A stretch of 64,000 nucleotides of DNA from sequence record NZ_CP084013.1; one strand, written 5' to 3'. Source of the stretch: a plasmid. The notes beneath the pieces are model-generated. The model saw only the letters and a program-made list of their open reading frames with translations, was not told the DNA's origin and did no database searches. Shown piece by piece: positions 2,602-37,383 of this stretch (positions are counted from its first letter, which is position 1; each line of letters begins with the position of its first letter). A program made the translations under genes and the position numbers.

Positions 2602-2673
2602 TTTGCAGTTGTTGTGTTTGCGGTCGAATGCGGCTATAATTTATTTTACATATTATGATTGGAGGTGTTTGGT

Positions 2674-3297
2674 ATGCGCACGTATCTTCGGAGGGCCGAG
2701 GCGGCGAACCGTCTGCACATATCGACCACCGCGTTCAAAACGCTCGTAGCCGAGGGGAAAATCAAATACGAGCTGTCGCCCGGCGGGCAGAAGGTGTATG
2801 ACCCGAAGGAAATCGACCGTTTCGCCGCCCGCGTTCAGGGTAGGGAGCCGGCGGAAGGCGTTCTCGTGTTCTACGTGCGGGACAGCGAGGGCAACACGAC
2901 GCGAATGAGAAATCAGGAGGAGCGGCTAGAGAAGGCGTATGGCGCTCCGTCAAAAGTGTACCGCGACCGCGCCTCCGGATTGAATGAGAACCGCAAGGGA
3001 CTGGCACGACTGCTCGACGACGCGGAGGAGGGACGTTTCGACCGGGTGGCCGTCACCGCCAAAGACAGGTTGAGCAGGTTCGGCGCATCTTATCTACAAC
3101 GGCATCTCGCGTTCCTCGGCATCGACCTGATTGTGTTGGACGGGGAACGGGAGAAGGGGATGATGGACGAACTCATGGACGACTTCATGGCTTTGCTCGC
3201 CTCGTTCTCCGGACGGTTCTACAAGCTGCGCAGCATCGAACATGAGAAACTGCTGCTCGACCGGGCGCGCGAAAGACTGGAGGAGCGTGGAGCATGA
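2674..3297 (+). CDS. tnpA: IS607-family TnpA serine recombinase with N-terminal MerR-like HTH
   Basis: HTH followed by a resolvase core: YVRDSEG (candidate catalytic Ser), SGLNENRKGLARLL, DRVAVTAKDRLSRFG; TGA overlaps the tnpB ATG. Confidence 0.7.
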   Translation: MRTYLRRAEAANRLHISTTAFKTLVAEGKIKYELSPGGQKVYDPKEIDRFAARVQGREPAEGVLVFYVRDSEGNTTRMRNQEERLEKAYGAPSKVYRDRASGLNENRKGLARLLDDAEEGRFDRVAVTAKDRLSRFGASYLQRHLAFLGIDLIVLDGEREKGMMDELMDDFMALLASFSGRFYKLRSIEHEKLLLDRARERLEERGA

Positions 3298-4952
3298 AAA
3301 CCGGTGAAATCGCCTGCGCTGTTCCAGACCTGCACGACTACCGTCTATACGACCACAGGACAGGCGAACCGTTGGACCCGGTGGAGGCCGAAACGCTGCT
3401 CTGGCTGCACTTGGACCATTGCCGGCAATGCCAGAACCGGATGATTCACGACCCGAGGAACCGGAATCTCAAACGGGGCGGAAATGCTGGGAGAGGCAAC
3501 GAATGGGCGAGGAAGAACGTCGCCTGCACAAGCCTGCCCTCCAAGTTCAGAAACCTCTCCCATCAGAACCGCGTCAATCAGACCGAGGCCGCCCGACTGC
3601 TCCTCGCATGGCGGGAACGCGAGGACATCGCCACCGCAATCGACGCCATCGGCTGGGAGAAGGCCACCTACGGGAACGTGCAGAAACGTTTGAGCCGGGA
3701 CATCGACCGTGAACTGTTCACGAACGTGCTCAACAGCGGCGGTCATCCAAGCCTGCCCACCGTGGAGCGCACGCAGTTCCCCTACGCGTACTCGAACAAC
3801 AACTCCTGCGGCATGTACGTCATCGACCAGCCCGCCGGGGTCATCCGATACGAGCGGATGGCCGTCTACGACAGGTTCGTGGACGTTGAGATATACGCGC
3901 CGCACATCATGCGCCTGCATCCGAACCTGACGAAGGTGTCCCGGCCCACGCTACGGTGGAACGGGGACTGCGTGACATGGGATGTCATCGTCTTCGAACC
4001 AAAACCCCGCAAAGAGGATGTGAACAAGGTGAGCCACGTCGTCGGCTTCGACCTGAACGCCGACTGGCATGGTGGCATCAGCGGGGCGCGACTCTCCTAC
4101 AACGGGACGGTGAGCCGAGAACTCGTAGCCGGCATCGACACACGCCGCCAGCAAACCGTGTTGGAGGAGCTGTATGTCCAATACCAGCGGTGTTTGAAGA
4201 AGCTCGACCGGCTCATGCCATGGCAGCGGCCACACGACCCGGACGACCCGCAGCAAGTGGCAGCCCACCCCGAATGGCGGCGACTCTACGAACAGTCGCT
4301 CAACCTCCGGGATAAGATGTACCGCATCAAAACCCTGTTGGACTGGCGGTACGCGCACGACATCACCGACCATGCCAAACCCGGCGAACTCATCGCCGTG
4401 GAGAAACTTTCCCCGTTCGATGCGGCAGGACGCGTCGAGTTCCGGCACGGCAGCCAACTGGAAAAACTGGAACACGTCGCCTCCAAGACCGGACAGCGCG
4501 TGGTGCAGGTCAACCCGGCGCACACGTCCGCCACCTGCCCGTGGTGCGATACCGTCAACAAGGTCGGCAAAGCCAGACAATACCGGTGCGCAGGATGCAG
4601 ACGTGACATCCCCCGCGACTACGGGTCTGGCGTCAACATCGCCAAACGCGGCGCACGCTATCTCGGACACAAAAACGTCCGACCTACCCCGCCGAAGGGA
4701 CACGCCACACCCAAACGTCCACCGGTCAGACACAAACGACCGGACGAAAAAACACGAGAACTTCTCACACAGATAACGTCAGGAACCGGCAAGGGGCCGG
4801 AATCCTTATGGGCCAAGACCACTCCACTGGAATGGCACATCCCATCGACGGCGACTATCGAGAATACAAGGAACCGACTAGCCCTCGCAAACCAGCGAGA
4901 CCGGGCAGCAACGGGGTTACGGCAGAAACCGCAACCACCCCATTCTCGATAA
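3294..4952 (+). CDS. tnpB: TnpB (OMEGA RNA-guided nuclease family), IS607-associated
   Basis: C-terminal zinc finger CPWCDTVN...CAGCRRD and RuvC-like context; translationally coupled to the serine recombinase gene. Confidence 0.7.
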   Translation: MKTGEIACAVPDLHDYRLYDHRTGEPLDPVEAETLLWLHLDHCRQCQNRMIHDPRNRNLKRGGNAGRGNEWARKNVACTSLPSKFRNLSHQNRVNQTEAARLLLAWREREDIATAIDAIGWEKATYGNVQKRLSRDIDRELFTNVLNSGGHPSLPTVERTQFPYAYSNNNSCGMYVIDQPAGVIRYERMAVYDRFVDVEIYAPHIMRLHPNLTKVSRPTLRWNGDCVTWDVIVFEPKPRKEDVNKVSHVVGFDLNADWHGGISGARLSYNGTVSRELVAGIDTRRQQTVLEELYVQYQRCLKKLDRLMPWQRPHDPDDPQQVAAHPEWRRLYEQSLNLRDKMYRIKTLLDWRYAHDITDHAKPGELIAVEKLSPFDAAGRVEFRHGSQLEKLEHVASKTGQRVVQVNPAHTSATCPWCDTVNKVGKARQYRCAGCRRDIPRDYGSGVNIAKRGARYLGHKNVRPTPPKGHATPKRPPVRHKRPDEKTRELLTQITSGTGKGPESLWAKTTPLEWHIPSTATIENTRNRLALANQRDRAATGLRQKPQPPHSR

Positions 4953-4999
4953 CCCTAATCCCGGGCATACTGGATTCTATTCTTTCCTGATATTTTGCT

Positions 5000-5023
5000 T
5001 GTTAAACTGAATATGTCCACATA
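5000..5023 (+). promoter_or_regulatory. motif-1 copy
   Basis: tgttaaactgaatatgtccacata upstream of 5053..5382. Confidence 0.5.
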
Positions 5024-5052
5024 ACACCAGAGCAGAAAGGCATGACCTTGAA

Positions 5053-5382
5053 GTGTGCGAAAAACTAACAGTACACGTGCGACTCATTCCCTACGGTAAC
5101 CTGCGAGATGCGGCAAAGCTCCACCATTACGAGCTGCGTCGCAGAAACATGGTCAGGGATGCCGGCAAGGAGCCAAATCCATTCGTCTTGGAACGCTGGA
5201 TGGTCAATTATGCCCGGCATGCGTTGACCGATTACGACCAGCAGTGCCATGACTTGGATCAAGATAGGTATGTCGAGCTTCGGACGGCGACATTGGACGC
5301 CATAGCCGACACGTATCCGCCATTGAGACATGAATGCGAACGTCAGAAAAGAATCCAGAATCCAGAAAAGGAGCCCGAGTGA
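5053..5382 (+). CDS. hypothetical protein
   Basis: ORF downstream of a motif-1 copy. Confidence 0.4.
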   Translation: MCEKLTVHVRLIPYGNLRDAAKLHHYELRRRNMVRDAGKEPNPFVLERWMVNYARHALTDYDQQCHDLDQDRYVELRTATLDAIADTYPPLRHECERQKRIQNPEKEPE

Positions 5383-5708
5383 GTAAGGAAAACAGCGCCG
5401 GCGAAACCATCGGGGCGACTACGACGATCATTCTGGAACCGGCTCGAATCAGTGGCAGTACCGTCGAACCGTCGCGGCGCGAAATAGCGAGAAAGCGTCG
5501 GAAGGAACGACGTTTGAACTGGGCTCTCGTGCTGGGAATGCTGGTTTTCGCGGTGTTCTGGCTGTTGGGGATGCAGTTGGTTTCCTGGCTTGCGGTTGGG
5601 GTGCCTTTGATGTGGAGGCTCGTACTGACGGTGTCTTCGCTTGTTTTTGCGGCCGCGTCCATGGTCCCCTCTTTGGTATATGCGTTTCGTCGAGAAAGGA
5701 AAAATTAG
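5380..5708 (+). CDS. small membrane protein (2 predicted TM helices)
   Basis: GTG after an aaaggag RBS; hydrophobic helices LVLGMLVFAVFWLLG and LVLTVSSLVFAAASMV. Confidence 0.4.
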
Positions 5709-5978
5709 TTGGGTGTCGGGTTGGCTGATGTGGCCGCTGAATATGTCCGATTGCACCGGGTCGAGCGGCAGTCTTTGCAGATTCGCAGTGTTAATCGCGT
5801 CGAGTTGACTGTGATACAGAATTTGTGGGCGGATAGGGTCGGGAAAGCTCGATTGGATATCCGTTCCGCTCCGGAGGTGGTGATGCGTGCGATCGAGCGG
5901 TCGAAGCGTGGTCACGAGCTTTTCGGTCGGGTTCGTGAGACTCCCGTATTGGTTGTGTACGAACTGAAGACACTTACC

Positions 5979-6002
5979 TGACATACTGAATATATTCACA
6001 TG
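5979..6002 (+). promoter_or_regulatory. degenerate motif-1 copy
   Basis: tgacatactgaatatattcacatg upstream of 6018..6500. Confidence 0.4.
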
Positions 6003-6017
6003 TGGTAAGATTGTTCC

Positions 6018-6500
6018 ATGACATCGCAAACTGAACCCTTCAAGATAGACGGACTTACCTTGATGCTACGAATAGGCCACGCCCCACGAGGGCGAATCTC
6101 CTATTTTAGCCCGCAAACCACCATCGAAGAATTCCTCCGTCATGCCGCCGAGCACGAGGGAAGACTGCTGTTCGTCGGCAACTTTAAATCATTGCGAAAC
6201 AAAATAGGCTTTAATTATTTGCTGCTCTGGTCACCCCAAAGCGCAATCAAACTCGTTGGAACGGTGACCAATTTCGGAGAGGCATACAATCCAAAAACCT
6301 GGAATCCGAAATCCCACTATCAGGCACCATTCCCATGGGGAAGAACGCCTGCCAACTACTGGTTGGCGTTGGACAATGTGCAGCAATTGGGAGATTTCGA
6401 TCCGGACAAGTTCGAGAGATTGGGCTACAACGCCAAAAAGATATCGCTGGCGGATGAGATGGAAACAAATGCAGCCACGTTCATAATCCGCCCTATTTAA
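6018..6500 (+). CDS. hypothetical protein
   Basis: ORF followed by a strong GC hairpin (cccccgcct...aggcggggg) at 6512-6548. Confidence 0.45.
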   Translation: MTSQTEPFKIDGLTLMLRIGHAPRGRISYFSPQTTIEEFLRHAAEHEGRLLFVGNFKSLRNKIGFNYLLLWSPQSAIKLVGTVTNFGEAYNPKTWNPKSHYQAPFPWGRTPANYWLALDNVQQLGDFDPDKFERLGYNAKKISLADEMETNAATFIIRPI

Positions 6501-6607
6501 CCTTCCTCGCCAAGGATTCCCCCGCCTCTAAGCGAAGCGTAGGCGGGGGATGAATTGGCGTATCTATATATGTTATACTGTAATCAGTCGTATATGTTAT
6601 AAACGAG

Positions 6608-7015
6608 GTGATTGCAGTGGAATTGGAGTCGAATCATCATTCGGTGTTCCTGTTGTATTATCATCTCGTGCTCGTCGTGAAATACCGTCGCAAGGTGTTC
6701 GACGACATCGTTTCGGCGCGTGCGCGTGAGATATTCGAGTACATCGCACCCAAGTATGGGATAACCGTTGAGGAATGGAACCACGACATGGACCACGTGC
6801 ACGTATTGTTCCGTGCCCAGCCGAAGAGCGAGTTGAGCAAGTTCATCAACGCTTACAAGAGCGCGTCGAGTCGTCTGCTCAAGCAGGAGTTTCCGCAGAT
6901 TCGGCAGAAACTGTGGAAGGAGTATTTCTGGAGCCGCAGCTTCTGCCTACTGACCACAGGAGGCGCGCCAATCGAAGTCATCCGCAAATACATCGAGAAC
7001 CAAGGCAGGAAGTAA
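6608..7015 (+). CDS. tnpA: IS200-like HUH Y1 transposase TnpA
   Basis: about 135 aa; HxH-type motif HDMDHVHVLF and conserved YRRKVF-like region typical of IS200 transposases. Confidence 0.85.
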   Translation: MIAVELESNHHSVFLLYYHLVLVVKYRRKVFDDIVSARAREIFEYIAPKYGITVEEWNHDMDHVHVLFRAQPKSELSKFINAYKSASSRLLKQEFPQIRQKLWKEYFWSRSFCLLTTGGAPIEVIRKYIENQGRK

Positions 7016-7029
7016 GGAGGTGAACCATC

Positions 7030-8151
7030 ATGCAGGTGAAACGTCATTGCGCGGTCAAGTACCGCATGTACCCGAACAGGGCTCAGGCGGCATTGATTGA
7101 CCGCACCATCGGTTGTGCGAGGTTCATCTACAATCAGATGCTTGAAACCCGCATCGGCACCTATAAGGCTACGGGTAAGTCGTGCAATCCGACTCCCGCC
7201 CAGTACAAGGACAGGTATCCGTTCCTGCGTGAGGTGGACAGCCTCGCACTGTGCAACGCCCAATTGAACGTGGCGAAGGCGTACAGGAACTTCTTCCGCG
7301 ACCCCAAGCACATCGGCTTCCCGAAGTACAAGGCGAAGCATCGCAATCGTCAGACCTACACGACGAACAACAGCAATAACAACGTCACCCTCGATGAAGG
7401 AGGCAGGCATCTCAAACTACCGAAAGTAGGGATTGTGCGCGTCCGCCAGCATAAACGCATACCCGAAGACTGGAAACTGAAGAGCGTGACCATCGAGCAT
7501 TGCAAAAACGGCGAATACACGGCGACGATACTGTTCGAGTACGAGACCCAAGCACTCGAACCCGTCCGACCCGTGCATATCGTCGGATTGGATTACTCCT
7601 CCCACGGCCTGTACGTGTCCAGCGACGGCGAACGAGCCGACTATTCGCGTTTCTACCGGCGGATGGAGCCACGGCTGATGCGCGAGCAACGTAGACTCAG
7701 CCACATGGTAAAAGGGTCCGGTAATTGGGTGAAACAGAAGCGGCGCATCGCCAAGCTCGCCGCCAAGGTCGGGAACCAGCGAGCCGACTTCCTGCATAAG
7801 ACGGCCAACCGGCTCGCCGCCCGATATGATTGCGTCGGCGTGGAGGACTTGGACATGAAGAACATGAGCCAATCCCTCACACTCGGCAAAAGCACGATGG
7901 ACAACGGGTACGGCATGTTCCGCACCATGCTCGCATACAAGCTCGAACGGCAAGGCAAGCAGCTGGTCACGGTAGACAGGTTCTACCCGTCCAGTCAACT
8001 ATGCTCCGATTGCGGATACCGCAATAAGGATACGAAGGACCTGCATATCCGCGAATGGACATGCCCTGACTGTGGCGTTTGGCATGACAGGGACGTGAAC
8101 GCCGCGACCAACATCATGCACGAAACACGACGACTCATGCAGGAACGATAA
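7030..8151 (+). CDS. tnpB: IS605 OrfB/TnpB RNA-guided nuclease
   Basis: 373 aa; RuvC-like motifs and C-terminal zinc finger CSDCGY...CPDCG; directly downstream of tnpA. Confidence 0.85.
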   Translation: MQVKRHCAVKYRMYPNRAQAALIDRTIGCARFIYNQMLETRIGTYKATGKSCNPTPAQYKDRYPFLREVDSLALCNAQLNVAKAYRNFFRDPKHIGFPKYKAKHRNRQTYTTNNSNNNVTLDEGGRHLKLPKVGIVRVRQHKRIPEDWKLKSVTIEHCKNGEYTATILFEYETQALEPVRPVHIVGLDYSSHGLYVSSDGERADYSRFYRRMEPRLMREQRRLSHMVKGSGNWVKQKRRIAKLAAKVGNQRADFLHKTANRLAARYDCVGVEDLDMKNMSQSLTLGKSTMDNGYGMFRTMLAYKLERQGKQLVTVDRFYPSSQLCSDCGYRNKDTKDLHIREWTCPDCGVWHDRDVNAATNIMHETRRLMQER

Positions 8152-8288
8152 CAAAAAACTTACGAGAACCGTGGGGCGCACGGGAATAGCCTGTAGACAC
8201 TGACTCGGATACGAGCCTTGAGCAGGAAGCCCCCACCTCAGATCGCGAAGCGGTCAGGTGGCGGGAGCACGTCACCCTCTGTCGTGGC

Positions 8289-8312
8289 TGTTATACTGAA
8301 AACATCTGCATA
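8289..8312 (+). promoter_or_regulatory. degenerate motif-1 copy at the IS605 right flank
   Basis: tgttatactgaaaacatctgcata upstream of 8325..8855. Confidence 0.4.
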
Positions 8313-8324
8313 AAAGGAAGACTT

Positions 8325-8855: not shown

Positions 8856-8857
8856 TC

Positions 8858-9184: not shown

Positions 9185-9196
9185 CCGGCAACCTTT

Positions 9197-9233
9197 CCTA
9201 ATCTCCCGACCATTGCGGTCGGGATATTTTTTT
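9197..9233 (+). terminator. rho-independent terminator
   Basis: cccgac cattgc ggtcggg hairpin followed by a T8 run. Confidence 0.6.
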
Positions 9234-9276
9234 TGGATATCGCCACCAACCGAAAAACGGGTATTTTCAATAGAAT

Positions 9277-9306
9277 ATCGGTTAATAACAACATCAAAAT
9301 CTATCG
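9277..9306 (+). promoter_or_regulatory. motif-2 copy (GAATATCGGTTAATAACAA)
   Basis: shared with the upstream regions of the FtsK-like, ParA-like, rep and 53539..54207 genes. Confidence 0.5.
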
Positions 9307-9314
9307 TGGAATAT

Positions 9315-12300
9315 ATGCCACGAGGAAACTTCTACCGTCCAGAAAGCTTTATAAGCCCGGCCAGCGAATACGGGCTGCTCCGTTCTGCCACGCCGGATCG
9401 CACCGTATGGCTGTACGCGCGCATCCCCTGGAGCACTGCATTGCTGGATGGAGCCAACGACCGGAAACGCAACGATGCCGCGCAACAGCTGATGGCGTTC
9501 TTCGACGGCCTCGCCAATCAGGTCACGGTTGCCGGTATGCGCTACCGTTACATGCTTCAAAGCGAATATCGCGAATTCCATCTACTCACCGGATCCATGC
9601 CCGTCCGATACAGTCCGCCGGCCAGCATGAGGGACACCGACCTCGGACGATACCAGGCGCAGTACTACCGTAGCCAGAAGGTATGCAAGCAGTTCGCGGT
9701 CATCGGCGTTCCTTTGAAACTGGTCGGGGATCATAGCAACAATCGCAAGCCCGGCATGCTGCAACGCGCCCTGACATGGTACGACCGCATGTGCTATTCG
9801 GTGGCAAACGGATGCCCAATGTTCGAAGAGTATCTGCCAGACGCGCATAATATCGAACGAATCATGCTCAACGCCGGGCTGGAACCATTCACCATCATGG
9901 ATGAGCAGGAACGCGAACAGCTGGTCGCCATGATGGAATCATGGTGGGTGGGGCGCGCCAACTCGTCGGCCCTGCCTATCCTGGCGGAGAACGCACACGT
10001 GCATTTCTTCCCGGATAACGCGACCTGCGCCCACGCCAAAAACCTGTACGACAATGGCGTGGACTGCACCGAGTGGAATATCGACGAAGAATACCCGGCC
10101 AGCATCTGCTTCGCACGCACGGCGGATTTCAACCAAAGCAGCATCACGGATCCAAACAACCTGTGGATTGCTAGACTCATGGAAGTCGGACGAGCCGGCG
10201 GAGCCAATGCGGTCGCCACAAGCATCCGAGGCAAAGTCGAACCGGCGAAAGTCACCGCCGACCAGATTCGACGCAACAGCCGCACCATCGACGAAAGCAT
10301 TAAGGAACGGTACGAGAAAGGCCATGAAGCCCCCGGTGATATGACCGAAATCAAGGAGCGTTTGGATTATAAGAAGGCAATCTACAATACTCCGGACATG
10401 CCGCCCAGCATCATTGATCTGAGCGTCGCCACCTGCGTGGCGGGCAACGAGCAGATGGCCATCGACGCTTTGGGGTGTATCCCCAACATCGAGTTCGTCA
10501 ATCTGACGACGGCTAGCGAACAGTTGATGGCGTTCAAAAGCATGCAGGCCTGTTCGAACGTACGCATGACCCCCTATGAGATCCACTGGGCCGCAACATG
10601 CGTCGCGGGAGGAGGCGTGAGCAGTTTCGCCAAAGCAGGCGACAGGGACGGAGCTCTTGTCGGATTGTCCGAAGCCAACAGGCAACCGGTGTATATCGGG
10701 ACAACAACCGTGCAGGACAAGGACAGGCGTCCAATTTTGGCTATTATCGGAGATACAGGAAGCGGGAAGGCCGTTCACATTTCCTCCACAATTCCGGTTC
10801 CCCCTCAGGCTAGCTTCCCCCATGGAAAAATGGCTAAGATCAGCGATTTGCATGAGGGAGACCTCGTCTACGGGCGGGACGGAAAACCTTATCCACTCCT
10901 CAAGCTTCATCCGATTCACACGGAAGATCTTTACGAAGTCACCCTCAGTGACGGTCAAACGATAAAAGCCAGCGGGAACCACCAGTGGATCGTCTCCGAT
11001 TTCAAAGATCGAAACAAATTCAGAAAACCAAAACATTTGAAATCCCAACAGCGTAAGAACATGCTGTCGGAGACATACGATGAGCTATGTCGGATGTCTG
11101 ATGCGCTACCGGCCCAATCAACCATGAGCGTGAACGAGCTTGCAGAGTTTGTCCATCCAGTAACGAGTCGTTGGTGGAGCGGAGAGAGCAATGCCAAGAC
11201 CATTGCCGCAGCGCTGCGATTTATGGGAGTTGAATCTCATCAAGAACAGCGAGACCGCGCGATAGCGGATACAAAAAAACCTTTTAAGACTCGGCAGAAC
11301 TGTAGGCGCTATAACACGCAGGAAGCTCTTCGGGCTTTGATTGCACATTATGATGGCGTGGCGCAGCATGCGAAAAGATGGAACGATCTCGCCAGGGAGC
11401 GTGCGGATGTCCTAAGAAAGCATTTGGAAGATAACTATCCGAAGGGCATCAGCATCACTGACATACAGAAGATGCTCGAGGATCGTTCACCAAGCCGTTC
11501 CTCTATCGCATCTGTCATAAAAACGCTCAATCCAATCAGTGAGTGGGATACGGAAGAACGAATTCACTCCGACAGAATGCGTCATGATTCGGTATCCGTA
11601 TACAACGTTCGAGAAGCATGCAGAGCCATAGGGCAACGCATGATGCTTCGTTATGAGGGGGCCTTCAACGAGACCAATTCCCTTGGATATTGTGAACAGG
11701 TTGTGACTACGCGAGACATGCTTGCGTCTGGTCTAAAGGATTCAGGCAATCGTGCGCAATGGGCAATCCGAGCCGCGATGCCTGTTGCCAACCCGCAAGC
11801 CGACCTGCCACTTGACCCATGGGTTTTAGGGGCTTGGTTAGCCGACGGTAGTATCGGCACTGGAATCATCGCTTCAGATAACAGGAATGGTGATTTGCAG
11901 CATGTGAAGTCCTGTCTCACCTCTGCGGGATTTTCTCTAGGAAGCATCAATACGCCGATGGTCGTGAATGTGAAGGGGCTTGTCTCCATTCTTCGCGATA
12001 TGGGGATACTCCGCGAAAAACGCATTCCTGAGATCTACTTCTCGGCGAGCATCGAGCAAAGACTCTCCCTCGTGCAGGGGTTGCTGGATCAGGATGGGAC
12101 CATCTCCTCAAATGGGAATATAGAGTTCACCCAGTCCGCCGATCATCTGCCGATTGTCCGAGGAATGGTGCGCCTGCTGAGATCTCTGGGAATCGTCGTT
12201 CACGAACCCCATCTCAACAAAGCAGGATACACGGCTGATGGTGTGCGTCACGAGGCTCAGGATCGTTATCGCATCACCTTCACGACGGATCTGCCGGTAT

Positions 12301-13634
12301 TCTCTTTGCAACGCAAAGCGGCTTTAATCCCTACGACGTTGAGACAAACCCAGCAATGGCTATACGTCAAAGACATCAGGAAGATATCCAACGCGCCTCA
12401 TCGTTGTCTGACCGTTGGAAGCCCTGACCATTCGTTCCTCATCGCTGATTACGTGCCGACCCATAATACGATGGCGGCGTTCAGCCTGTTTCTGCAATGG
12501 TCGAAGATTGACGCGCGTGACGGTAAAGGCAAGACCCCGTGCATTTACATTAATCCGAAGGCCGGTAATGATTTGGAGGATGCGACCCGTTCGCAGGGTG
12601 GTACGGTCATCCGGTTGGATTCCGATGTGGCCAACGGCACGTTCGACCCGTTCAACGTGATTCCGAATGTGGAGGAGGCCAAGGAAATCGCCGTCCTGAT
12701 GATGACGAACATTCTTGGCGGTGACACAAAGATGGAATCCGCCATGACAGCCATGCTGGATTACGGCGTCAAACACGGGGCGCGTTACGTAGGCCGGGCT
12801 CTGCTTGTCGCCGCCCAAGCTGTTGCGAAGACCATCAAAGCGGGGAACACGGCGGAGTCCATTGGGTTGCCTTCCAACACCCTCGAGGTGTTTTCGACAA
12901 TCAGCATGAACCTGAAGGCGAACCAGGGACTACGTCTTATCTTCGGCACCGATAATGACACCAAGCCGTTGACGATCAGCCAAAACCTGACCCTCATCAA
13001 TGCCGGAGACCGTTCACTCATCCCCGAAGGCCAAGATGATTCCATGACCGCTCGCATCCGCCAGTGGACGTTGCGAATGGTCGTCATGGGAGCCGGCACC
13101 GCCGTTCGAGGCCGCGATGGCATGGTAGGTGTCGATGAGGCATGGGTGTTCATGGGCAAGGACAAGGGAGCTTCCCGAACCTTCGAACAATGGGTGCGTA
13201 TGGCCCGTTCGCAACGATTCACGCCTGTCATCATCAGCCAGAAAGTGCAGGAGTTCATCGATGCCGACTTGACCGGAGGTATCAGCCGCGCCCTCCTTCT
13301 GGCGTTGGACAACCCGGAAGAAGCCAATGGCACGGTCAGTCCGGCCAAATCAGCGGAACGACTCCTAGGCATCGAAGACCCCAATGGTCGGATCTTGCAG
13401 CGCATGGGAGCCGATGATACTTTGGACAACGGTCAGCCGAACCCGAACAGTCTGAAGCGCCTGGTAAGCGCATCGACGAGGAAGACCGTTCGCGGAGCCG
13501 TCGCCTATTTCAAAGACGGGTCCAAGCAGCCTATTCCAGTGGAAATCGTGATTCCTCCGGCATTGTTGAAGGAAATCAGCACCACTGCCACGGACAAGAT
13601 CGCACGAGAACAACGAAAGAACAAGGAGCAGTGA
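9315..13634 (+). CDS. VirB4/TraE-like conjugative ATPase interrupted by an intein
   Basis: Walker A GDTGSGK|...|T is split by the insertion; Walker B VDEAWVFMG downstream; the first ATG after the upstream terminator is taken as start (the ORF track opens at a TTG at 9213). Confidence 0.75.
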   Translation: MPRGNFYRPESFISPASEYGLLRSATPDRTVWLYARIPWSTALLDGANDRKRNDAAQQLMAFFDGLANQVTVAGMRYRYMLQSEYREFHLLTGSMPVRYSPPASMRDTDLGRYQAQYYRSQKVCKQFAVIGVPLKLVGDHSNNRKPGMLQRALTWYDRMCYSVANGCPMFEEYLPDAHNIERIMLNAGLEPFTIMDEQEREQLVAMMESWWVGRANSSALPILAENAHVHFFPDNATCAHAKNLYDNGVDCTEWNIDEEYPASICFARTADFNQSSITDPNNLWIARLMEVGRAGGANAVATSIRGKVEPAKVTADQIRRNSRTIDESIKERYEKGHEAPGDMTEIKERLDYKKAIYNTPDMPPSIIDLSVATCVAGNEQMAIDALGCIPNIEFVNLTTASEQLMAFKSMQACSNVRMTPYEIHWAATCVAGGGVSSFAKAGDRDGALVGLSEANRQPVYIGTTTVQDKDRRPILAIIGDTGSGKAVHISSTIPVPPQASFPHGKMAKISDLHEGDLVYGRDGKPYPLLKLHPIHTEDLYEVTLSDGQTIKASGNHQWIVSDFKDRNKFRKPKHLKSQQRKNMLSETYDELCRMSDALPAQSTMSVNELAEFVHPVTSRWWSGESNAKTIAAALRFMGVESHQEQRDRAIADTKKPFKTRQNCRRYNTQEALRALIAHYDGVAQHAKRWNDLARERADVLRKHLEDNYPKGISITDIQKMLEDRSPSRSSIASVIKTLNPISEWDTEERIHSDRMRHDSVSVYNVREACRAIGQRMMLRYEGAFNETNSLGYCEQVVTTRDMLASGLKDSGNRAQWAIRAAMPVANPQADLPLDPWVLGAWLADGSIGTGIIASDNRNGDLQHVKSCLTSAGFSLGSINTPMVVNVKGLVSILRDMGILREKRIPEIYFSASIEQRLSLVQGLLDQDGTISSNGNIEFTQSADHLPIVRGMVRLLRSLGIVVHEPHLNKAGYTADGVRHEAQDRYRITFTTDLPVFSLQRKAALIPTTLRQTQQWLYVKDIRKISNAPHRCLTVGSPDHSFLIADYVPTHNTMAAFSLFLQWSKIDARDGKGKTPCIYINPKAGNDLEDATRSQGGTVIRLDSDVANGTFDPFNVIPNVEEAKEIAVLMMTNILGGDTKMESAMTAMLDYGVKHGARYVGRALLVAAQAVAKTIKAGNTAESIGLPSNTLEVFSTISMNLKANQGLRLIFGTDNDTKPLTISQNLTLINAGDRSLIPEGQDDSMTARIRQWTLRMVVMGAGTAVRGRDGMVGVDEAWVFMGKDKGASRTFEQWVRMARSQRFTPVIISQKVQEFIDADLTGGISRALLLALDNPEEANGTVSPAKSAERLLGIEDPNGRILQRMGADDTLDNGQPNPNSLKRLVSASTRKTVRGAVAYFKDGSKQPIPVEIVIPPALLKEISTTATDKIAREQRKNKEQ
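10770..12467 (+). other. intein (566 aa) with LAGLIDADG homing-endonuclease domain inside the VirB4 P-loop
   Basis: N-extein ends GSGK and the C-extein resumes TMAAFSLF, restoring GxxGxGKT; the insert ends ...ADYVPTHN before +1 Thr; two LAGLIDADG blocks (LGAWLADGSIG, LVQGLLDQDGTIS); Hint-like N-terminal block DLVYGRDG. Confidence 0.75.
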
Positions 13635-20751: not shown

Positions 20752-20845
20752 GTGGTCGCTCCGTTTCAGCGATTGCCAGATACCCGGCCGGTACGAACGG
20801 TGCGGGTATCTTTTTTCTTTTCGTCGTTATTTTATCGCGTTTTTC

Positions 20846-21090
20846 TTAGAATTTTGACACCTTTCTTAGAATTCTGACACCAAATTTAGAATTTGGACAC
20901 CATTTTTAGAATTATGACACCTTTCTTAGAATTTTGACACCATCTCTGCGAATGCCATCGAACCACACCCCGATTGCCTACGATCAGAGCGGTCACAGCC
21001 TTAGAATTTTGACACCCTCGCTTAGAATTTTGACACCGACTCTTAGAATTTTGACACCCGTTCTTAGAATTTTGACACCGACATGGCCTC
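20846..21090. repeat. iteron array: about 9 direct repeats of TTCTTAGAATTTTGACACC (period about 22 bp) in two clusters
   Basis: five copies at 20846-20945 and four at 20999-21085, directly upstream of the rep gene. Confidence 0.75.
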
Positions 21091-27414: not shown

Positions 27415-27422
27415 CATAGGAT

Positions 27423-29690: not shown

Positions 29691-29793
29691 AAAAAACGGG
29701 AAAGCCGAGGCAATTGACCTCGGCTTTCCCGTTAATCCCATCGTTTTGCCGTGAGGGTGCCCCCGCCTTTAGGCGTGGGGAGGACGTCAAACA

Positions 29794-30969: not shown

Positions 30970-31047
30970 GATGGTTCCTCCTTGACGATTTGACGATCGC
31001 TCCACAGTGCATTGAGGATGGGAGTTTTCGTCTTCTCTTCTTTTTTC

Positions 31048-31073
31048 TATGTGGACATATTCAAATATACGCA
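31048..31073 (-). promoter_or_regulatory. motif-1 copy (minus-strand orientation)
   Basis: reverse complement tgcgtatatttgaatatgtccacata drives 29794..30969; lies in the divergent region shared with the XRE gene. Confidence 0.5.
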
Positions 31074-31241
31074 GTTATCTGAACATGTATATTATTCGGC
31101 GTGTTGCCTTTATTTCCAAGGCGTTTCTCCTTGTTAGAGAATGCTGAAAAACGCAGTTTTCTGCATGTTGTACAATGGGAGCGTGAACACAACCAGAAGA
31201 CTGGACGACACCAGTCCGACCACTGCATCCAGGAGAGGCGA

Positions 31242-31889
31242 ATGAACCAGCTATCAATCAGACGCCTGCGCCAGCTAGCAGGAAAAACCAAAAACGAGAT
31301 AGCCGACCTGCTGGGCATGAGCGTCAACACGTACAGCAAGTACGAGGACAACCCCATGAGCCTGTCCTACGCCGCATACCATCAGCTCATCGAATATCTC
31401 GAAACAGCAATCCAAATCAGGAAAAAACTGGAAAAGGAGCAACCTATGAACACCCCCATCAAAGCGAAAGTCCGATTCGTCGCACCCGACGAAGACGACG
31501 AGGACCGTCTCAGCGACTACACAGTGCCGATCCCCGAAGGACTGACCGAGGAATTCCACCCCTCGCAACCCGTCACACCGAAGCAGCTCCTCGACTGGGA
31601 AACCAAGAACAAGGAACCATACCCGGGTTATTCGGAGGAATTCTTCAACTGGGAGAACGCTTGGGAAGAGGTCAACCGCGCCCAGCAGAAAGCCGATGGC
31701 GGATATCTCCACCTCTCCGACCCGGTGCCCGTCAGCCCGGAGTTCGACGAGACGACCGGAGAACCCATCACCTACGACGAGCCTCACGTCGTCGTGGATC
31801 CGGAAAGCGGCAACACCAGCGTGTACGTCGACGAGGCTGACATGTCAGCCCAGGAAATCGCCGAATCCGATCCAGTGAACAACAAGTAG
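31242..31889 (+). CDS. XRE-family HTH transcriptional regulator
   Basis: HTH LRQLAGKTKNEIADLLGMSVNTYSKYE; aggagaggcg RBS. Confidence 0.6.
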   Translation: MNQLSIRRLRQLAGKTKNEIADLLGMSVNTYSKYEDNPMSLSYAAYHQLIEYLETAIQIRKKLEKEQPMNTPIKAKVRFVAPDEDDEDRLSDYTVPIPEGLTEEFHPSQPVTPKQLLDWETKNKEPYPGYSEEFFNWENAWEEVNRAQQKADGGYLHLSDPVPVSPEFDETTGEPITYDEPHVVVDPESGNTSVYVDEADMSAQEIAESDPVNNK

Positions 31890-31964
31890 CCTCCCCACAT
31901 ACCGTTCCGGCATGCTCCGTCCATAGGCATGCCCGGAACTTGAATCCAAGAAGGAAAGACACCA

Positions 31965-32894
31965 ATGGCCTACGCGAAAATCATCGACATCGACGACCCC
32001 GGCTACTTCCGGTTGAAATCAATCGACCAAAGCCAATTGAAACAATTCCTGAAAAACCCGGCCGACTGGGCATATCACCGTCTCAACGACGACCACAAGC
32101 CCACCGACGCCATGAAGTTCGGTACGGCGTTCCACGCTTACCTGCTCGGCACCAGCGACGTTGTCAGCCTGCCTGAGGGAGAGAGCTTCAGGAGCAAAGA
32201 CAACCAGAAGTGGCGAGCAGACCAGCTGGAAGCAGGAAACATCATCGTCTCCTACAATGACATGCAACTGCTCAAACGCATGAAAGAAGGCATCGAACAG
32301 ACCAGTCTCATGCCCGAATACCCCGATTACATGGAAATCATCGAACAGGGAACCAAGGAACAGTGCATCGAATGGAAGGACCGTCAAACCGGTCTGATGC
32401 TCAAGGCGAAGCCTGATCTGATTCCTGCCGGCACCGATTACCTGGTCGATTTGAAAACCGCCCAGAAGGCCGACGCGGAATCATTCGCCAAGGAAGTCAT
32501 CAACTACGGTTATCACATTCAGACCGTTTTCTACCGTGCCGCGGTAGCCGCATGCAAGCCGGACGCCTTCGACCGTGGATCCAAGGCTCCCAGCACCATG
32601 CAATTCTGGGTGTTCGAGAAATCCGATGCCTGCGACTGGCAGCCTTTCAGCATCAGCGATGACAATCCGATCACGAATCTTGCCGCGACCAGCATCCGCC
32701 AAGCACTCTTGGGCATCGCCTTGATGGTCAAGAAAGCCAAGGAGGAAGGCTACGCAGAGAACACTCCAGACCCCGTGGACGCCGCCGCGAAGTATGCGCT
32801 CCGACATGGTTTCAACAAGAAGGTCAAGGAGGTTTCGTTCCAGAACTGGCAGCTGCTGACTGCGGAAAACATGCTCTGCGATCTCGCCAGCTGA
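31965..32894 (+). CDS. PD-(D/E)XK (RecB/Cas4-like) nuclease
   Basis: motifs GTAFHAYLL, D...DYLVDLKT and QxxxY (YHIQTVFY). Confidence 0.6.
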   Translation: MAYAKIIDIDDPGYFRLKSIDQSQLKQFLKNPADWAYHRLNDDHKPTDAMKFGTAFHAYLLGTSDVVSLPEGESFRSKDNQKWRADQLEAGNIIVSYNDMQLLKRMKEGIEQTSLMPEYPDYMEIIEQGTKEQCIEWKDRQTGLMLKAKPDLIPAGTDYLVDLKTAQKADAESFAKEVINYGYHIQTVFYRAAVAACKPDAFDRGSKAPSTMQFWVFEKSDACDWQPFSISDDNPITNLAATSIRQALLGIALMVKKAKEEGYAENTPDPVDAAAKYALRHGFNKKVKEVSFQNWQLLTAENMLCDLAS

Positions 32895-32962
32895 TTGCCT
32901 GAGGGTTGACGGAGAGGACCATCCAGCACGATGATCCTCTCTTCTTTTTTTTATCGTTTGCT

Positions 32963-32986
32963 CGTTATACTGAATATGTCCACATA
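32963..32986 (+). promoter_or_regulatory. motif-1 copy
   Basis: cgttatactgaatatgtccacata upstream of 33013..34059. Confidence 0.55.
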
Positions 32987-33012
32987 CAGTAAAGACGACA
33001 GAACCAACGCCA

Positions 33013-34059
33013 ATGCCATCAGCACCTCGAACACGCCGGACAACATCCAGCAATCCAAGAAAACCAGCCAACTACAAACGCAGAGGCTACGCCCACGAGT
33101 TCACCATCCCAATCGAATGGTGGAGTACGACCGACACCATACAGACGGAACGCATGCGAGCCAGACGAAGGGCATGGGTGAGGGACTACGCGAAAAACGA
33201 ATGGCGCAACCTCAAGAAAACAGGAAAAGCCTGGAAAGTGGAACGGTTCATCGCCCTTATAGGCGTAGCCTGTCCAAGCCAGAAAAACATTTTCCCGGCG
33301 AGAGCGGCCGAAACCATCAAACCCATCATCGACGGTGGCAGTGATGCCCGACTCTGGGACGACGATGACAGCCAGCACCGGCACAGCACCGTATACATCC
33401 AACTGCCAACACCGGCACCAGTCAACCATTACAGGCTGAGCGTGCTCATCATCCCGGTGCCGGAATCAATGCCGAAATACCAGATCACCTCACGTCTCGC
33501 ATCGAACATCGACCAGCATTGGCGAAATAATCCCAATCCGCCGGCATGGCACGACGGGTACTCGGTGTCATTCACGATTCCCGACAAACAGTGGATAACC
33601 AGCAACTATACGGATAGTGACCTCATCGCCAGACAGAACGGCGAACGGAAATCAGCCACATGGGGGAGGGGAGGCAGCTTCGGCATTCGGGAACGAGTAC
33701 GCGCACAACTCATCGAACTGGCCTTCCAACAGTGGAAAAGACAAGCCTACCGTCCGTATGAAAGATTCGCCATCATCGCCGGAATCGCATACCCGTACGG
33801 GGTGAAAACCGCCGACCCTGACAATGCGGCGGAAACGGTGAACACCATACTGCATTCGGGAACCCGCATCGGAGCCTGGCCGGATGTGAACAGCCAGCAT
33901 TGCAGGGGAGTGGCTTTCGTACGTCTGCCGAATCTCATGACGGGAAACCATATGGTCAGACTTTTTGTTTTCCCGGTGCCCGAGAATTTTCAGATGGCGC
34001 AGAGCATAGCCGAAAGCTCCATCGACGCTTGGGGCGAACATGATCGGAGGATGCGTTGA
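33013..34059 (+). CDS. tandem-duplicated RusA-like Holliday-junction resolvase (single-chain pseudo-dimer)
   Basis: two homologous halves; the second keeps DPDN...WPDVNSQ, matching RusA D-x-D-N...W-L-D-D; the first half is degenerate. Confidence 0.5.
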   Translation: MPSAPRTRRTTSSNPRKPANYKRRGYAHEFTIPIEWWSTTDTIQTERMRARRRAWVRDYAKNEWRNLKKTGKAWKVERFIALIGVACPSQKNIFPARAAETIKPIIDGGSDARLWDDDDSQHRHSTVYIQLPTPAPVNHYRLSVLIIPVPESMPKYQITSRLASNIDQHWRNNPNPPAWHDGYSVSFTIPDKQWITSNYTDSDLIARQNGERKSATWGRGGSFGIRERVRAQLIELAFQQWKRQAYRPYERFAIIAGIAYPYGVKTADPDNAAETVNTILHSGTRIGAWPDVNSQHCRGVAFVRLPNLMTGNHMVRLFVFPVPENFQMAQSIAESSIDAWGEHDRRMR

Positions 34060-34403
34060 ACCTGAGACAAGTGCTAGTCCAGACCGTGATAGGACTCATC
34101 GCTATCCTCATAGCCGTCCTATATGCGATGTTCATCGTCCCGCAGGACTGGTTCATCGACTCCAGGGAATCAGTCGTCACCATATCGGTCATAATCTGCG
34201 CGACCGGATACATCATCACGGTCTGGGCCCGTTATATCCGTCATCTCACACGCCGGAGAATCGATCAACGAATCATCCGCGACGCCGAATCCGAGATGAA
34301 AAAAGGTCTTTGGCAAAAACCGAAAATTCTTCGAAATGAACCGACCGCAACCATACGATTGGACAGGAAGCACATCCGACAATCTCAGAGAAAGAGCCGA
34401 TAA
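34056..34403 (+). CDS. small membrane protein
   Basis: two hydrophobic helices; start overlaps upstream stop. Confidence 0.4.
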   Translation: MNLRQVLVQTVIGLIAILIAVLYAMFIVPQDWFIDSRESVVTISVIICATGYIITVWARYIRHLTRRRIDQRIIRDAESEMKKGLWQKPKILRNEPTATIRLDRKHIRQSQRKSR

Positions 34404-35935
34404 TGGTATGGACTCCAGCAACACAGCCGCGTGACCCCCTTGGCAGATTCCGTAAAACCAATCTCGTCCCCGGCGAATACACGTACACCACGCGCAGCGG
34501 CATCGTCAAGAAATACTATGTCAACGATATGAACCAGCTGGCAGACGGGTCCACCATCCTGCACATGAGCGCCCAAGGCAAGGTGTTCGGCAGTTTCAAG
34601 ACCCAGAACCCCATCGAACGCATCCACATCATCGGCAACAGCGATATGGAACAGATGGCCGTCGCGGCGTCCGGGGAAACCACATTCGGCGTGATCAACC
34701 ACAGCAAGGCCGCCCCACCGGACGTGTTCAGCCTCAACCGCGGACACGATTTCCAACCGGTCGGCTCCAACCTGCCGGACGGGGAAACATCCTTTGGGGG
34801 AAGAGCGGCTCAAATCACCGGCCGTCCGGACGGGAAAACCTATGACACGTTGAACGCCCAGAAAGCCGAACAAGCCAACCTCGCGGCGTTCGCAGACCCA
34901 AGCAACCGCGTCTATTCCGCTGACCCCGGCGACTTCGCCGAAGCTGCGGTCCAGGCACGTCATTACTACGAGAAGGAGTTCGGGCTCAGCGAATCCCAAG
35001 CCCGGGAAATGCCGGTCTACGTGTATGCGGACAAGAACGGCAACGTCACCGTGAAACCCGCATACAAGCCTGAAAGCGTTCCCATGAGCGAACTGGGAAT
35101 GCAGCCAGGCGACCCGGTGCCGGAAGGCTTCCATGTGAACGGGGACAATCTCGTCGCCATGGTGCCCCAGCGGAGCCCCAACACGCATGGAGGCAGCGGC
35201 AGCGTCCGTCTCCGTGGCCGTGACCTCACTCGCATGACCAGGGCCATGCAGAAGGATGGTCTCAAGAGCGTCGACTTCACCGTGAGCGGAGGCACCAAGG
35301 TCTCGGCAAAAAGCGGCAAACCGTTGCAGAACGCCTTGCATTTCCGCACCGACTACATGAACCCCCACAGCGGAGACGACATCACCGTATGGGGTTCCAT
35401 CGAAGCGAAACAGTACGGGACGCAGCCGGTCAAGGCACGCAGGGAGTTCACCACCAACGAGGAATTCCAAGACTATACGCGCAAGGTGCAAGCAGTCCGC
35501 GAACGGGCGGCCGCACCATACGTGGATCCGCAATCCCCACAGGCAGCCGCGAAACTGCTGCGAGCCAAGTATGGAACGAATCGGTTCTACAGCAGCGACA
35601 TCCAGATGCGCGACGGCAAAGAGGGAGTGGCCTTTGCCGTCAATACTCCCGGCGGACACGCCCGCATGCTGTCCAACGGGAACGGTGTCTGCATCGGCAA
35701 GGAGCCGGCCGACGCGGAGGGCTTCGCATCCATGTTCAATAACGGCAAGAGTCCGGCCAATCGTATCACCGCCGACAACGTGAAGGTCTTGTCGGATGGT
35801 AATTTCCGCGTCCGGAAAAACGGTCAGGAAACGTTCTACACGCCATCCCTGTCCACTACCCGCGGGACTCGTAGCCGCAACGGAAAACTTTACGGCTACA
35901 ACGAGGCCGGAGATTTCGTCAACTTACCGCGATGA
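34403..35935 (+). CDS. hypothetical protein (510 aa)
   Basis: long ORF with good coding bias; an IS1341-like element is inserted directly after its stop. Confidence 0.45.
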   Translation: MVWTPATQPRDPLGRFRKTNLVPGEYTYTTRSGIVKKYYVNDMNQLADGSTILHMSAQGKVFGSFKTQNPIERIHIIGNSDMEQMAVAASGETTFGVINHSKAAPPDVFSLNRGHDFQPVGSNLPDGETSFGGRAAQITGRPDGKTYDTLNAQKAEQANLAAFADPSNRVYSADPGDFAEAAVQARHYYEKEFGLSESQAREMPVYVYADKNGNVTVKPAYKPESVPMSELGMQPGDPVPEGFHVNGDNLVAMVPQRSPNTHGGSGSVRLRGRDLTRMTRAMQKDGLKSVDFTVSGGTKVSAKSGKPLQNALHFRTDYMNPHSGDDITVWGSIEAKQYGTQPVKARREFTTNEEFQDYTRKVQAVRERAAAPYVDPQSPQAAAKLLRAKYGTNRFYSSDIQMRDGKEGVAFAVNTPGGHARMLSNGNGVCIGKEPADAEGFASMFNNGKSPANRITADNVKVLSDGNFRVRKNGQETFYTPSLSTTRGTRSRNGKLYGYNEAGDFVNLPR

Positions 35936-36041
35936 CGAGCATCGCGGCTTGTCCCTGTCCAGCGGTAAAAGCGAGACATTCGTGATGATTGTCTCTCCCG
36001 CCTTTGATTCCGTTTCCCCGAGGGGTTGCGGTGACGGAACA

Positions 36042-37268
36042 TCATGGGATGGTTGGCTGCACCCCTGCGACGTCAAGCGTGTTGGCGTCGCACTGCATCA
36101 CGGTAAGGTCGTAGCCTTTGTGACGCAGGTTCATCGCGGCTATCCGGTCGTCGTTCGACCGGTAGCCGCAGTTGCGGCAGCGGAACGTGTGCGTTTCCTT
36201 GTTGCGGTTCTTGCGGGACACGTATCCGCATCGGGGGCATGTCTGGCTCGTGTACGCTGGGTCCACTGCTATCGTGGCCTGCCCGTTGCGGGCGGCCTTG
36301 TATTCGATGAACGAGCGGAGTTGGCTGAACGCCCACGAGACTTGCACGTAACGTTGTTGGACTTTCACGGTTTCCGCCGTATTGCGGATGCCTGTGAGGT
36401 CTTCGAGCGTGAAGAGCGTGTCCTTGCCGTACTGGTTGACGAGTGCCTTAGAGACCTGATGGTTGATGTCGGTCATCCAACGGTTTTCTCGACTGCCTAT
36501 GGCTTTGAGACGTTTTCTCGCGCTGCGCGTGCCCCTGTGTTGCAACTGTTTGCGGAGTTCCTTGTATTTGCCGCGCCGGTGTTTCACCTCCTTCCCATCG
36601 TAGAAAACGGTGCGCTCCCCGTCGTAGGAGGTAGCAAGGAACCGGATACCCAGGTCGATGCCGACGATGGTCTTCGGATGTTCCGTGGCATCCGGCGTTG
36701 GGATGGTGACGGGGATGAGCAGATGCCATTTGTCCCGCTTGCGGATGAGGCGTGCGGTTCCGAACCTCCCATGCCGGTATTGGTCGGGAATGCTGGCCCA
36801 TTCGGCTTTCACTTTGATGCGCCCATCCATGACGGGGAGGCTGAACAGGCCTGTCTTGGTGGAGTACGAGTAGTCCCTGTTCCACAACAGGTCGGCACCG
36901 TCCGGCGCATACTGGGGTTTGATACTGTAATATGCTGGGATTTTCCTCCTCTTGCGCCTCTTCCCGTTCTTCTTACCTTTGCTCTCCTCGCGGAGGTTAG
37001 CGATTCGCGTGTGGATGGCCTTGTAGTTGGCGATGACCCGGCGTATCGCCGATTGGGTCATCTGCGCGAGCAGCCCATGGGTTTCGCGCAACTGGTGGTA
37101 GATGGCCTTGTTGATTTTCTTCTGGCTGAGCGTGTGCGTGGAGTCCACGTAGTCAGCCACGTCGTTGCAGCAGTCGGCGAACGTCGAACACAACGCTGCG
37201 AGAGCGTCCGCTTGCCGCCGTGTGGGCGATAGACGGACGCACATCGTCAACGTCAACTCAGCCATCAA
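36042..37268 (-). CDS. tnpB: solo TnpB (IS1341-like, IS605 OrfB family)
   Basis: 408 aa; zinc finger CPRCGY...CRNCGY; no adjacent tnpA. Confidence 0.8.
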   Translation of the reverse strand: MMAELTLTMCVRLSPTRRQADALAALCSTFADCCNDVADYVDSTHTLSQKKINKAIYHQLRETHGLLAQMTQSAIRRVIANYKAIHTRIANLREESKGKKNGKRRKRRKIPAYYSIKPQYAPDGADLLWNRDYSYSTKTGLFSLPVMDGRIKVKAEWASIPDQYRHGRFGTARLIRKRDKWHLLIPVTIPTPDATEHPKTIVGIDLGIRFLATSYDGERTVFYDGKEVKHRRGKYKELRKQLQHRGTRSARKRLKAIGSRENRWMTDINHQVSKALVNQYGKDTLFTLEDLTGIRNTAETVKVQQRYVQVSWAFSQLRSFIEYKAARNGQATIAVDPAYTSQTCPRCGYVSRKNRNKETHTFRCRNCGYRSNDDRIAAMNLRHKGYDLTVMQCDANTLDVAGVQPTIP

Positions 37269-37383
37269 ACCTCCAATAAGACAAATAATATCATAAACTT
37301 AGTGGAAAGAAAAGTGGCGTTCACCCGCGACGACAAGCATCGCGGTACCCCGCCATAAACACTCATGGAATTGCCGAATCGCT

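Follow-up and report, generated by a model that had tools for sequence, protein, structure and literature searches.

Does a plasmid with three tnpB genes, each in a different kind of insertion sequence (IS), also encode the RNAs that would guide the three nucleases? We have addressed this question for a stretch of 64,000 nucleotides from the plasmid record NZ_CP084013.1, referred to below as the window. The three insertion sequences, elements 1, 2 and 3 (Table 1), are intact, unrelated to one another and recently mobile, and they are ordinary members of known families on a known plasmid family. The best explanation as a whole, and in our view a very probable one, is that they independently colonised one Bifidobacterium longum megaplasmid and that each is an OMEGA system (the name stands for obligate mobile element-guided activity), in which TnpB would be directed by an omegaRNA.

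Three elements, their genes and their ends

The initial annotation paired one tnpB gene with an IS607-type serine recombinase and one with an IS200 Y1 TnpA, and described the third as a solo, IS1341-like gene. Pfam and a phmmer scan of all six-frame open reading frames (ORFs) of the window bear this out: there are three TnpB paralogues and no more, with a single serine recombinase and a single Y1 TnpA. The gene coordinates also hold, apart from the choice of start codon; in the RefSeq annotation of near-identical copies the genes start at 2674 (ATG), 3294, 6617 (GVG), 7030 and 37265 (ATG). TnpB domains are present at all three places, in TnpB-1 through the TNB domain only, and the TNB family PF07282 exceeds its cut-off in TnpB-1, TnpB-2 and TnpB-3.

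The ends of the elements were set from natural empty alleles, in sister plasmids that are 97-99% identical and lack one or more of the insertions. The empty allele of element 1, found in two sister plasmids (L002, CP146883, and L003, CP143940; L numbers denote the sequences compared), reads ...GGAGCCT/AATCCCGGG, or with longer flanks ...TTTCCTCGGAGCCT/AATCCCGGGCAT, where the slash marks the insertion point. The trinucleotide CCT is common to the left flank and the right end, which makes the boundary ambiguous by 3 bp, and there is no target duplication. A repeat search found no terminal inverted repeats at element 1, and returned just the helix that closes the RNA described below. Copies of at least 99% identity occupy three or more sites. 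One of these, 99.45% identical, lies in CP143940 about 0.9 kb away, in reverse orientation, at GCAGCCT/TCTCGCTC; a further copy lies in L106 at AAAGCCT/CACAGGAAG. Eight insertions in the IS607-type family, at sites that are for the most part demonstrably different, stand directly after RGCCT (AGCCT in seven, GGCCT in one), and the right ends finish ATAACCCT in all seven sequenced members. The first sequence to differ between copies of element 1 is the flank that holds the putative guide.

The insertion site of element 1 (2597-2602) is inside the stop codon of a 3'-5' exonuclease gene (2011-2601). The exonuclease ORF is preserved, with an empty allele that ends ...GCC TAA and an occupied allele that ends ...GCC TGA.

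How typical is element 1 of the IS607 family? The identical recombinase gene in CP143940 is annotated by RefSeq as an IS607 family transposase, and the pairing of recombinase and tnpB is present in every TnpB-1 relative whose DNA was read. With the canonical members IS607, IS1535 and CboIStron, element 1 shares a serine recombinase with an N-terminal helix-turn-helix domain, an overlapping downstream tnpB, the lack of inverted repeats and target duplication, a short sequence common to target and right end, and a structured RNA at the right end. In the literature, however, IS607 is strictly GG-dependent and the family has G-rich target-adjacent motifs (TAMs; TGGG, AGGAG, GAGGG) and RAGATH-18-type RNAs, whereas element 1 has the shared core CCT and the target AGCCT, with GG on the opposite strand only. 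Further differences are that just 4 nt separate the end of the tnpB-1 ORF from the right end, that its RNA has no Rfam match, and that the sequence match between the 552-aa TnpB-1 and the solved IS607-type TnpBs is confined to the C-terminal 115 residues. RAGATH-18-guided TnpBs of the IS607 family were reportedly described by Ren et al. in 2024. Judged by sequence, element 1 is IS607-type in gene content and mechanics, and atypical in failing the GG feature. On excision, GGAGCCTAATCCC would be expected as donor joint and ...ATAACC[CT]GATTTG as circle junction.

Element 2 is a close counterpart of ISDra2 from Deinococcus radiodurans. Its empty allele in CP143940 reads CCCTATTTAA/CCTCTGTCG, with a right flank that starts with the putative guide-2, CCTCTGTCGTGGCTGT, and no duplication. 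An 89% identical copy on an unrelated fecal contig (L001, MT837053) ends at the same bases: on the left the similarity begins 1 base beyond TTCAA, and on the right it stops exactly at ...CGTCAC. Copies occupy three or more sites, with the left flanks TTTAA (window), TTCAA (L001, L019) and CTCAAG (L020), and the downstream flank is different in each copy. The TnpA translation shows an HVH motif and a C-terminal RKYIENQ tyrosine, and residues 5-365 of TnpB-2 match the ISDra2 TnpB structures 8h1j and 8bf8 (E ~1e-75). Like element 2, ISDra2 consists of a Y1 TnpA followed by TnpB between subterminal hairpins at both ends, is inserted 3' of a T-rich pentanucleotide without duplication, and has a structured RNA that extends to the right end. 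It differs in its TAM (TTGAT, against the candidate TTYAA of element 2) and in its host, which for element 2 is a Bifidobacterium megaplasmid.

Element 3 holds one gene, tnpB without tnpA, as in the IS1341 group. Its empty allele in L004 reads GGAGATTTC/ATGGAATTG, and four B. longum plasmids also lack it. Copies of 98-100% identity are found at other sites, in pMP7017 (L005, 98.8%), L066 and L068; at five insertion sites the left flanks are TTCCAT, TTCCAT, TTCTAT, CTCCAT and GTCCAT, while the downstream flanks differ. Elements 2 and 3 both have subterminal hairpins at both ends, without inverted repeats or target duplication, and are inserted 3' of a conserved pentanucleotide. The closest solved relatives of TnpB-3 are the Cas12f/TnpB entries 9nzq (8e-26) and 9nzp, and element 3 resembles the IS1341-group and Cas12f-related TnpBs in carrying tnpB alone between IS200/IS605-type hairpin ends. 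Unlike the Cas12f-related systems, it has no associated CRISPR array. The right end GGTA(A)GTTGAC is common to relatives that are 46-50% identical.

Element 3 is inserted (35915-35935) 21 nt before the stop of a 510-aa ORF (34403-35935), whose last seven codons are now derived from the element. A 478-aa ORF on the plus strand (35796-37232), antisense to tnpB-3, has no family match and is regarded as a shadow ORF, as expected in GC-rich DNA. A further IS200/IS605 element in CP146883 was considered as the autonomous partner of element 3 and rejected: its ends are different, and its TnpB shows just 24% identity, limited to a fragment.

Table 1. Coordinates of the three elements and of their observed and candidate features in the window.
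Feature	Positions	Strand	Basis or remark
Element 1, IS607-type, 2357 bp	2600-4956	+	Empty alleles in L002/L003
Candidate TAM-1 (target motif), AGCCT	2595-2599	+	Left flanks of family insertions
IS607-type serine recombinase TnpA, 207 aa	2674-3297 (ORF 2659/2674-3297)	+	Pfam Resolvase 1.4e-18; N-terminal HTH_17 (residues 9-58), then Resolvase (70-194)
TnpB-1, 552 aa, divergent long TnpB	3294-4952	+	Pfam Cas12f1-like_TNB 2.7e-12; TNB domain; triad; predicted fold
Predicted omegaRNA-1 scaffold	4777-4956	+	Wholly inside tnpB-1 ORF tail; further helices possible upstream to ~4665
Putative guide-1, AATCCCGGGCATACTGGATT	4957-4976	+	3' extent assumed
Element 2, IS200/IS605, ISDra2-like, 1775 bp	6501-8275	+	L003 empty allele; ends of L001 copy
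Candidate TAM-2, TTTAA (consensus TTYAA)	6496-6500	+	Left flanks of copies
Left-end subterminal hairpin, CCCCGCCT-N13-AGGCGGGG	6520-6548	+	Read in sequence; conserved in L001
Y1 (HUH) transposase TnpA	6617-7015 (ORF 6608/6617-7015)	+	Pfam Y1_Tnp 4.9e-44
TnpB-2, 373 aa	7030-8151	+	All three Pfam TnpB domains: HTH_OrfB_IS605, OrfB_IS605, TNB (to 8.9e-26)
Predicted omegaRNA-2 scaffold	8169-8275	+	Minimum extent
Right-end hairpin	~8233-8262	+	Coincides with last helix of omegaRNA-2
Putative guide-2, CCTCTGTCGTGGCTGT	8276-8291	+	Flank differs in each independent copy
Element 3, solo-tnpB, IS1341-like, 1447 bp	35918-37364	-	L004 empty allele; absent from four B. longum plasmids
Candidate TAM-3, TTCCAT (core TCYAT)	37365-37370	-	Five insertion sites
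Left-end subterminal hairpin, CCGCGACGACAAGCATCGCGG	37325-37345	-	Near-twin of right-end hairpin
TnpB-3, 407 aa	36042-37265 (ORF 36042-37268)	-	Pfam OrfB_IS605 and TNB (2.5e-22)
Predicted omegaRNA-3 scaffold	35918-36065	-	Includes right-end hairpin; overlaps last 8 tnpB-3 codons
Right-end hairpin	35927-35947	-	Within omegaRNA-3 scaffold
Putative guide-3, GAAATCTCCGGCCTCGTTGT (minus strand)	35898-35917	-	Flank differs between copies

Because near-identical copies occupy other sites elsewhere, all three elements must have moved recently. Could the tnpB genes nevertheless be decaying relics, inactive passengers without a guide-RNA function? Some relatives do decay: two Bifidobacterium relatives of TnpB-1 (L006, L007) are frameshifted, and a few metagenomic copies of element 3 (L070, L071) are truncated. 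The initial annotation had named a missing RuvC triad as the sign of a relic. In the window, though, all three ORFs are full length and the triad and the zinc finger are intact in all three proteins: D253/E370/D442 with C415/C418/C432/C435 in TnpB-1, D188/E272/D355 in TnpB-2 and D204/E288/D373 in TnpB-3, the latter two with two CxxC pairs each. The triad and four cysteines of TnpB-1 are invariant in its family (10 relatives) and invariant or near-invariant in 36 more distant relatives. The elements have copies that are 98-100% identical at several sites, and the core of TnpB-1 is under strong purifying selection (variability at the three codon positions 0.18/0.12/0.48). We consider it scarcely credible that these genes are relics.

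Structured RNAs and their putative guides

Is there a conserved RNA at the right end of each element? Structure was judged by covariation against 500 shuffled alignments and against controls slid along the sequence, with 5-7 sequences per alignment. In omegaRNA-1, 28 of 69 pairs show compensatory change among seven sequences (53-79% protein identity), a level that none of the shuffles reaches and that compares with 3-6 pairs in the slid controls. Its well-supported core spans 4777-4951, and a 10-bp helix (4856-4865 with 4942-4951) lies just before the right end. The other two alignments give 9 of 33 compensatory pairs for omegaRNA-2 (five sequences; slid controls 0-3; covariation score reached by no shuffle) and 14 of 25 for omegaRNA-3 (six sequences, down to 46% protein identity; slid controls 2-3; no shuffle equal on any measure). 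The single-sequence fold of omegaRNA-3 has z = -2.8. We therefore predict, from these alignments, that a conserved structured RNA ends at the right end of each element.

This result agrees in part with what had been proposed. An omegaRNA was expected at the 3' end of each tnpB, in the following 150-250 nt, and was to be sought by covariance search. Covariation exceeds the shuffled and slid controls and supports the RNA in all three cases, but omegaRNA-1 is located inside the tnpB-1 ORF and not after it, and Rfam scans matched none of the three.

A different interpretation of the same structures is that they are DNA sites recognised by the transposases, part of the right-end architecture, and not guide-RNA scaffolds. 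IS200/IS605 transposases bind subterminal hairpins of single-stranded DNA, and in both omegaRNA-2 and omegaRNA-3 the final helix falls on such a hairpin. The IS607 TnpA, according to the literature, requires about 60 bp of the right end. That said, the structured region of element 1 is at least 175 nt long, and its base-pair covariation has no rationale at the DNA level, since it is in double-stranded form that an IS607-type element moves. Covariation also extends to helices that lie upstream of the terminal hairpin (in omegaRNA-2, helix 3; in omegaRNA-3, helices 1-2), and TnpB-2 is closely related to the ISDra2 TnpB, whose RNA has been solved in complex. An origin of these structures purely as transposase sites is, on this evidence, very improbable.

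The empty alleles hold what each element would need in a target. In sister plasmids, candidate TAM and putative guide are contiguous and perfectly matched at all three sites, the configuration known to be cut by TnpB (PMC8612924). For each element the TAM and the downstream flank are contiguous in the empty allele only. Within the window, searches with 16 nt of each guide gave no other credible match; the secondary matches are at chance level, with 3 mismatches.

The mechanism that we propose follows characterised systems (Karvelis 2021, PMC8612924; Zedaveinyte preprint, 10.1101/2023.11.20.567912; review, PMC13565253). Transcription of the 3' part of each element would continue across the right end into flanking DNA, and the resulting omegaRNA would comprise the structured scaffold and some 16-20 nt of flank as guide. 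TnpB, with its RuvC site intact in each case, would bind this RNA and cut DNA where the element's own 5' motif (AGCCT, TTYAA or TCYAT) directly abuts a match to the guide. Such a configuration would be confined to the vacated donor site or to the uninserted sister allele, and repair from the occupied copy would restore or spread the element. Element 3, as a non-autonomous element with hairpin ends of the IS200/IS605 type, would be mobilised by a TnpA supplied in trans.

Several points weigh against this account. The covariation alignments are small, and the terminal hairpin of elements 2 and 3 doubles as the single-stranded DNA hairpin recognised by TnpA, where covariation does not discriminate between RNA and DNA function. 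None of the three RNAs was matched in Rfam, either at the gathering level or, over each right end, at E-values up to 10. For 4400-5000, Rfam 15 gave no family at E <=10 besides two chance matches to long non-coding RNAs; the presence of RAGATH-18 in that copy of Rfam is unconfirmed. The exact boundary between TAM and guide in element 1 is ambiguous within AGCCT. A phmmer search of the window ORFs found no Y1 TnpA matching element 3. Finally, it is by analogy with the respective families that the RNA is taken to be transcribed and processed, and that a guide length, cleavage, homing and the mobilisation of element 3 in trans are assumed.

If the empty alleles of sister plasmids are targets, are the three TnpB-omegaRNA pairs allele-specific weapons or gene drives, by which IS-free alleles are cut and sister megaplasmids are converted or eliminated? 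The perfect targets in natural sister plasmids are what such a role would lead us to expect, and the window may carry a scar of it. At 1709-1714 it lacks a 138-bp intergenic segment that sister plasmids have (L002 2572-2709; in L003, 215-337 together with the sequence flanking its IS607 copy), with a junction microhomology of 3-6 bp. The missing segment holds the exact target GCAGCCT/TCTCGCTC at which CP143940 carries its IS607 copy. This deletion may have been left by repair after TnpB-1 cut a vacated site, or it may be a coincidence. Against the weapon or drive, the idea is wholly a matter of inference, incompatible sister plasmids probably share a cell only transiently, and the deletion has other possible causes. 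We regard such a role, beyond the self-maintenance of the elements, as unlikely.

TnpB elements are very common, and their presence on a plasmid is no surprise. The description of this plasmid as a hotspot for RNA-guided transposon nucleases was overstated: what we see is an isolate-specific accumulation of common insertion sequences, to which the term applies only loosely. The value of the locus is practical. It places three unrelated TnpB systems in one replicon of a human-gut commensal, with base-exact ends, candidate TAMs and guides and models of the scaffolds. These could be a starting point for endogenous genome-editing tools in Bifidobacterium, a genus that is difficult to manipulate.

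TnpB-1 and its coding tail

TnpB-1 is divergent: its matches to PDB sequences are restricted to residues 337-453, and TNB is its one Pfam domain. An AlphaFold (AF2) model built on the alignment of its relatives is confident, with a pLDDT (predicted local distance difference test) of 83.6, and Foldseek with this model returns AsCas12f, OsCas12f and the ISDra2 TnpB over ~490 columns (E 1e-13 to 7e-11). By this model, TnpB-1 is predicted to have the WED-REC-RuvC fold over its full length.

What, then, does the end of the gene encode? In the RuvC core, variability at the three codon positions is 0.177/0.115/0.479, the mark of strong purifying selection; in the last 57 codons it is flat (0.288/0.267/0.294). 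Residues 494-552 have a pLDDT below 50 and are predicted to be disordered. Two relatives have an ORF that ends 20 nt sooner, and their DNA is still conserved up to ATAACCCT. Given this flat codon variability, the disordered residues and the conservation of DNA past the earlier stops, the tail of tnpB-1 appears to be constrained as RNA and not as protein. Indels in the tail are multiples of three. Since the ORF reaches to 4 nt before the right end, the predicted scaffold of omegaRNA-1 is wholly coding. The gene may thus serve as a clean case of a coding sequence whose last ~57 codons are constrained as RNA, not protein.

The clade of TnpB-1 appears to be rare, with close relatives from Bifidobacterium or gut metagenomes. 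A word-indexed search of 5.8 billion proteins returned 16 relatives, all from these two sources. Among 185,579 species genomes scanned, three carry a locus (B. callitrichos, B. cuniculi and B. amazonense), and in two of the three it is frameshifted. A profile search run exhaustively over 1.84 billion representatives gave 33 clusters at E <1e-30, most of them with 490-680 aa and a full-length alignment. The element 1 clade would widen the repertoire of ends and TAMs known for the IS607 family.

It is tempting to go further. Element 1 might represent a distinct, Bifidobacterium-restricted IS607 subgroup, with a recombination core that reads CC(T), not GG, on the coding strand, the C-containing TAM AGCCT, a long TnpB of 552 aa and an omegaRNA unrelated to RAGATH-18 that is embedded in an ORF tail translated yet unconstrained as protein, while all three TnpB-omegaRNA pairs act against IS-free sister plasmids in homing or competition and the 138-bp deletion is a cleavage scar. 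Taken jointly, these proposals are speculative and we hold them to be doubtful.

The megaplasmid and its other genes

The initial annotation spoke of the carrier as a single element, which is mistaken. In megablast searches against plasmids, the window shows 98-99% identity over tens of kb with four megaplasmids from B. longum (184-198 kb), including CP065398, CP065396, CP146883 and CP143940, and ~81% identity with pMP7017 of B. breve JCM 7017. By these matches, the window is part of a large conjugative B. longum megaplasmid of the pMP7017 type, roughly 190 kb in size. The GC content of the window is ~55%. It carries an array of about 20 tRNA genes together with a transfer-messenger RNA (tmRNA) gene (43752-49042), and its other genes include FtsK/SpoIIIE-like and AAA_10 ATPases and a DNA methyltransferase. 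pMP7017 has the same backbone, tRNA array and tmRNA, and a copy of element 3, but differs in its insertion sites. The pMP7017 literature reports the identical tRNA array and tmRNA, and the paper on its transcriptome nowhere mentions transposases or TnpB. The IS load of the megaplasmid differs between isolates.

A phage origin was suspected from the tRNA array, the tmRNA and terminase-like PHROG matches, and was rejected: a phage collection returned one match, which is an IS copy, against the 98-99% identity to plasmids. The PHROG 'terminase' matches fall on a homing-endonuclease (Hom_end) segment, residues 938-1031 of a 1473-aa AAA_10 ATPase (9213-13634), and this segment is probably an intein. 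IMG/VR contigs of 31-171 kb (L014-L021) that bear element 2 with identical megaplasmid flanks are catalogued as viral genomes, and are probably misclassified megaplasmid.

The sister plasmid CP146883 carries, at its positions 677-2492 (corresponding to about 1637 in the window), a fourth kind of IS200/IS605 element with a divergently oriented tnpA. Its TnpB has 428 aa and is 30% identical to TnpB-2. With this one, the plasmid family harbours no fewer than four TnpB lineages.

At 20842-21082, upstream of a 1135-aa FtsK/SpoIIIE-like ORF, there are two blocks of iteron-like repeats, 20-21 bp each (CTTAGAATTTTGACACC) and in tandem.

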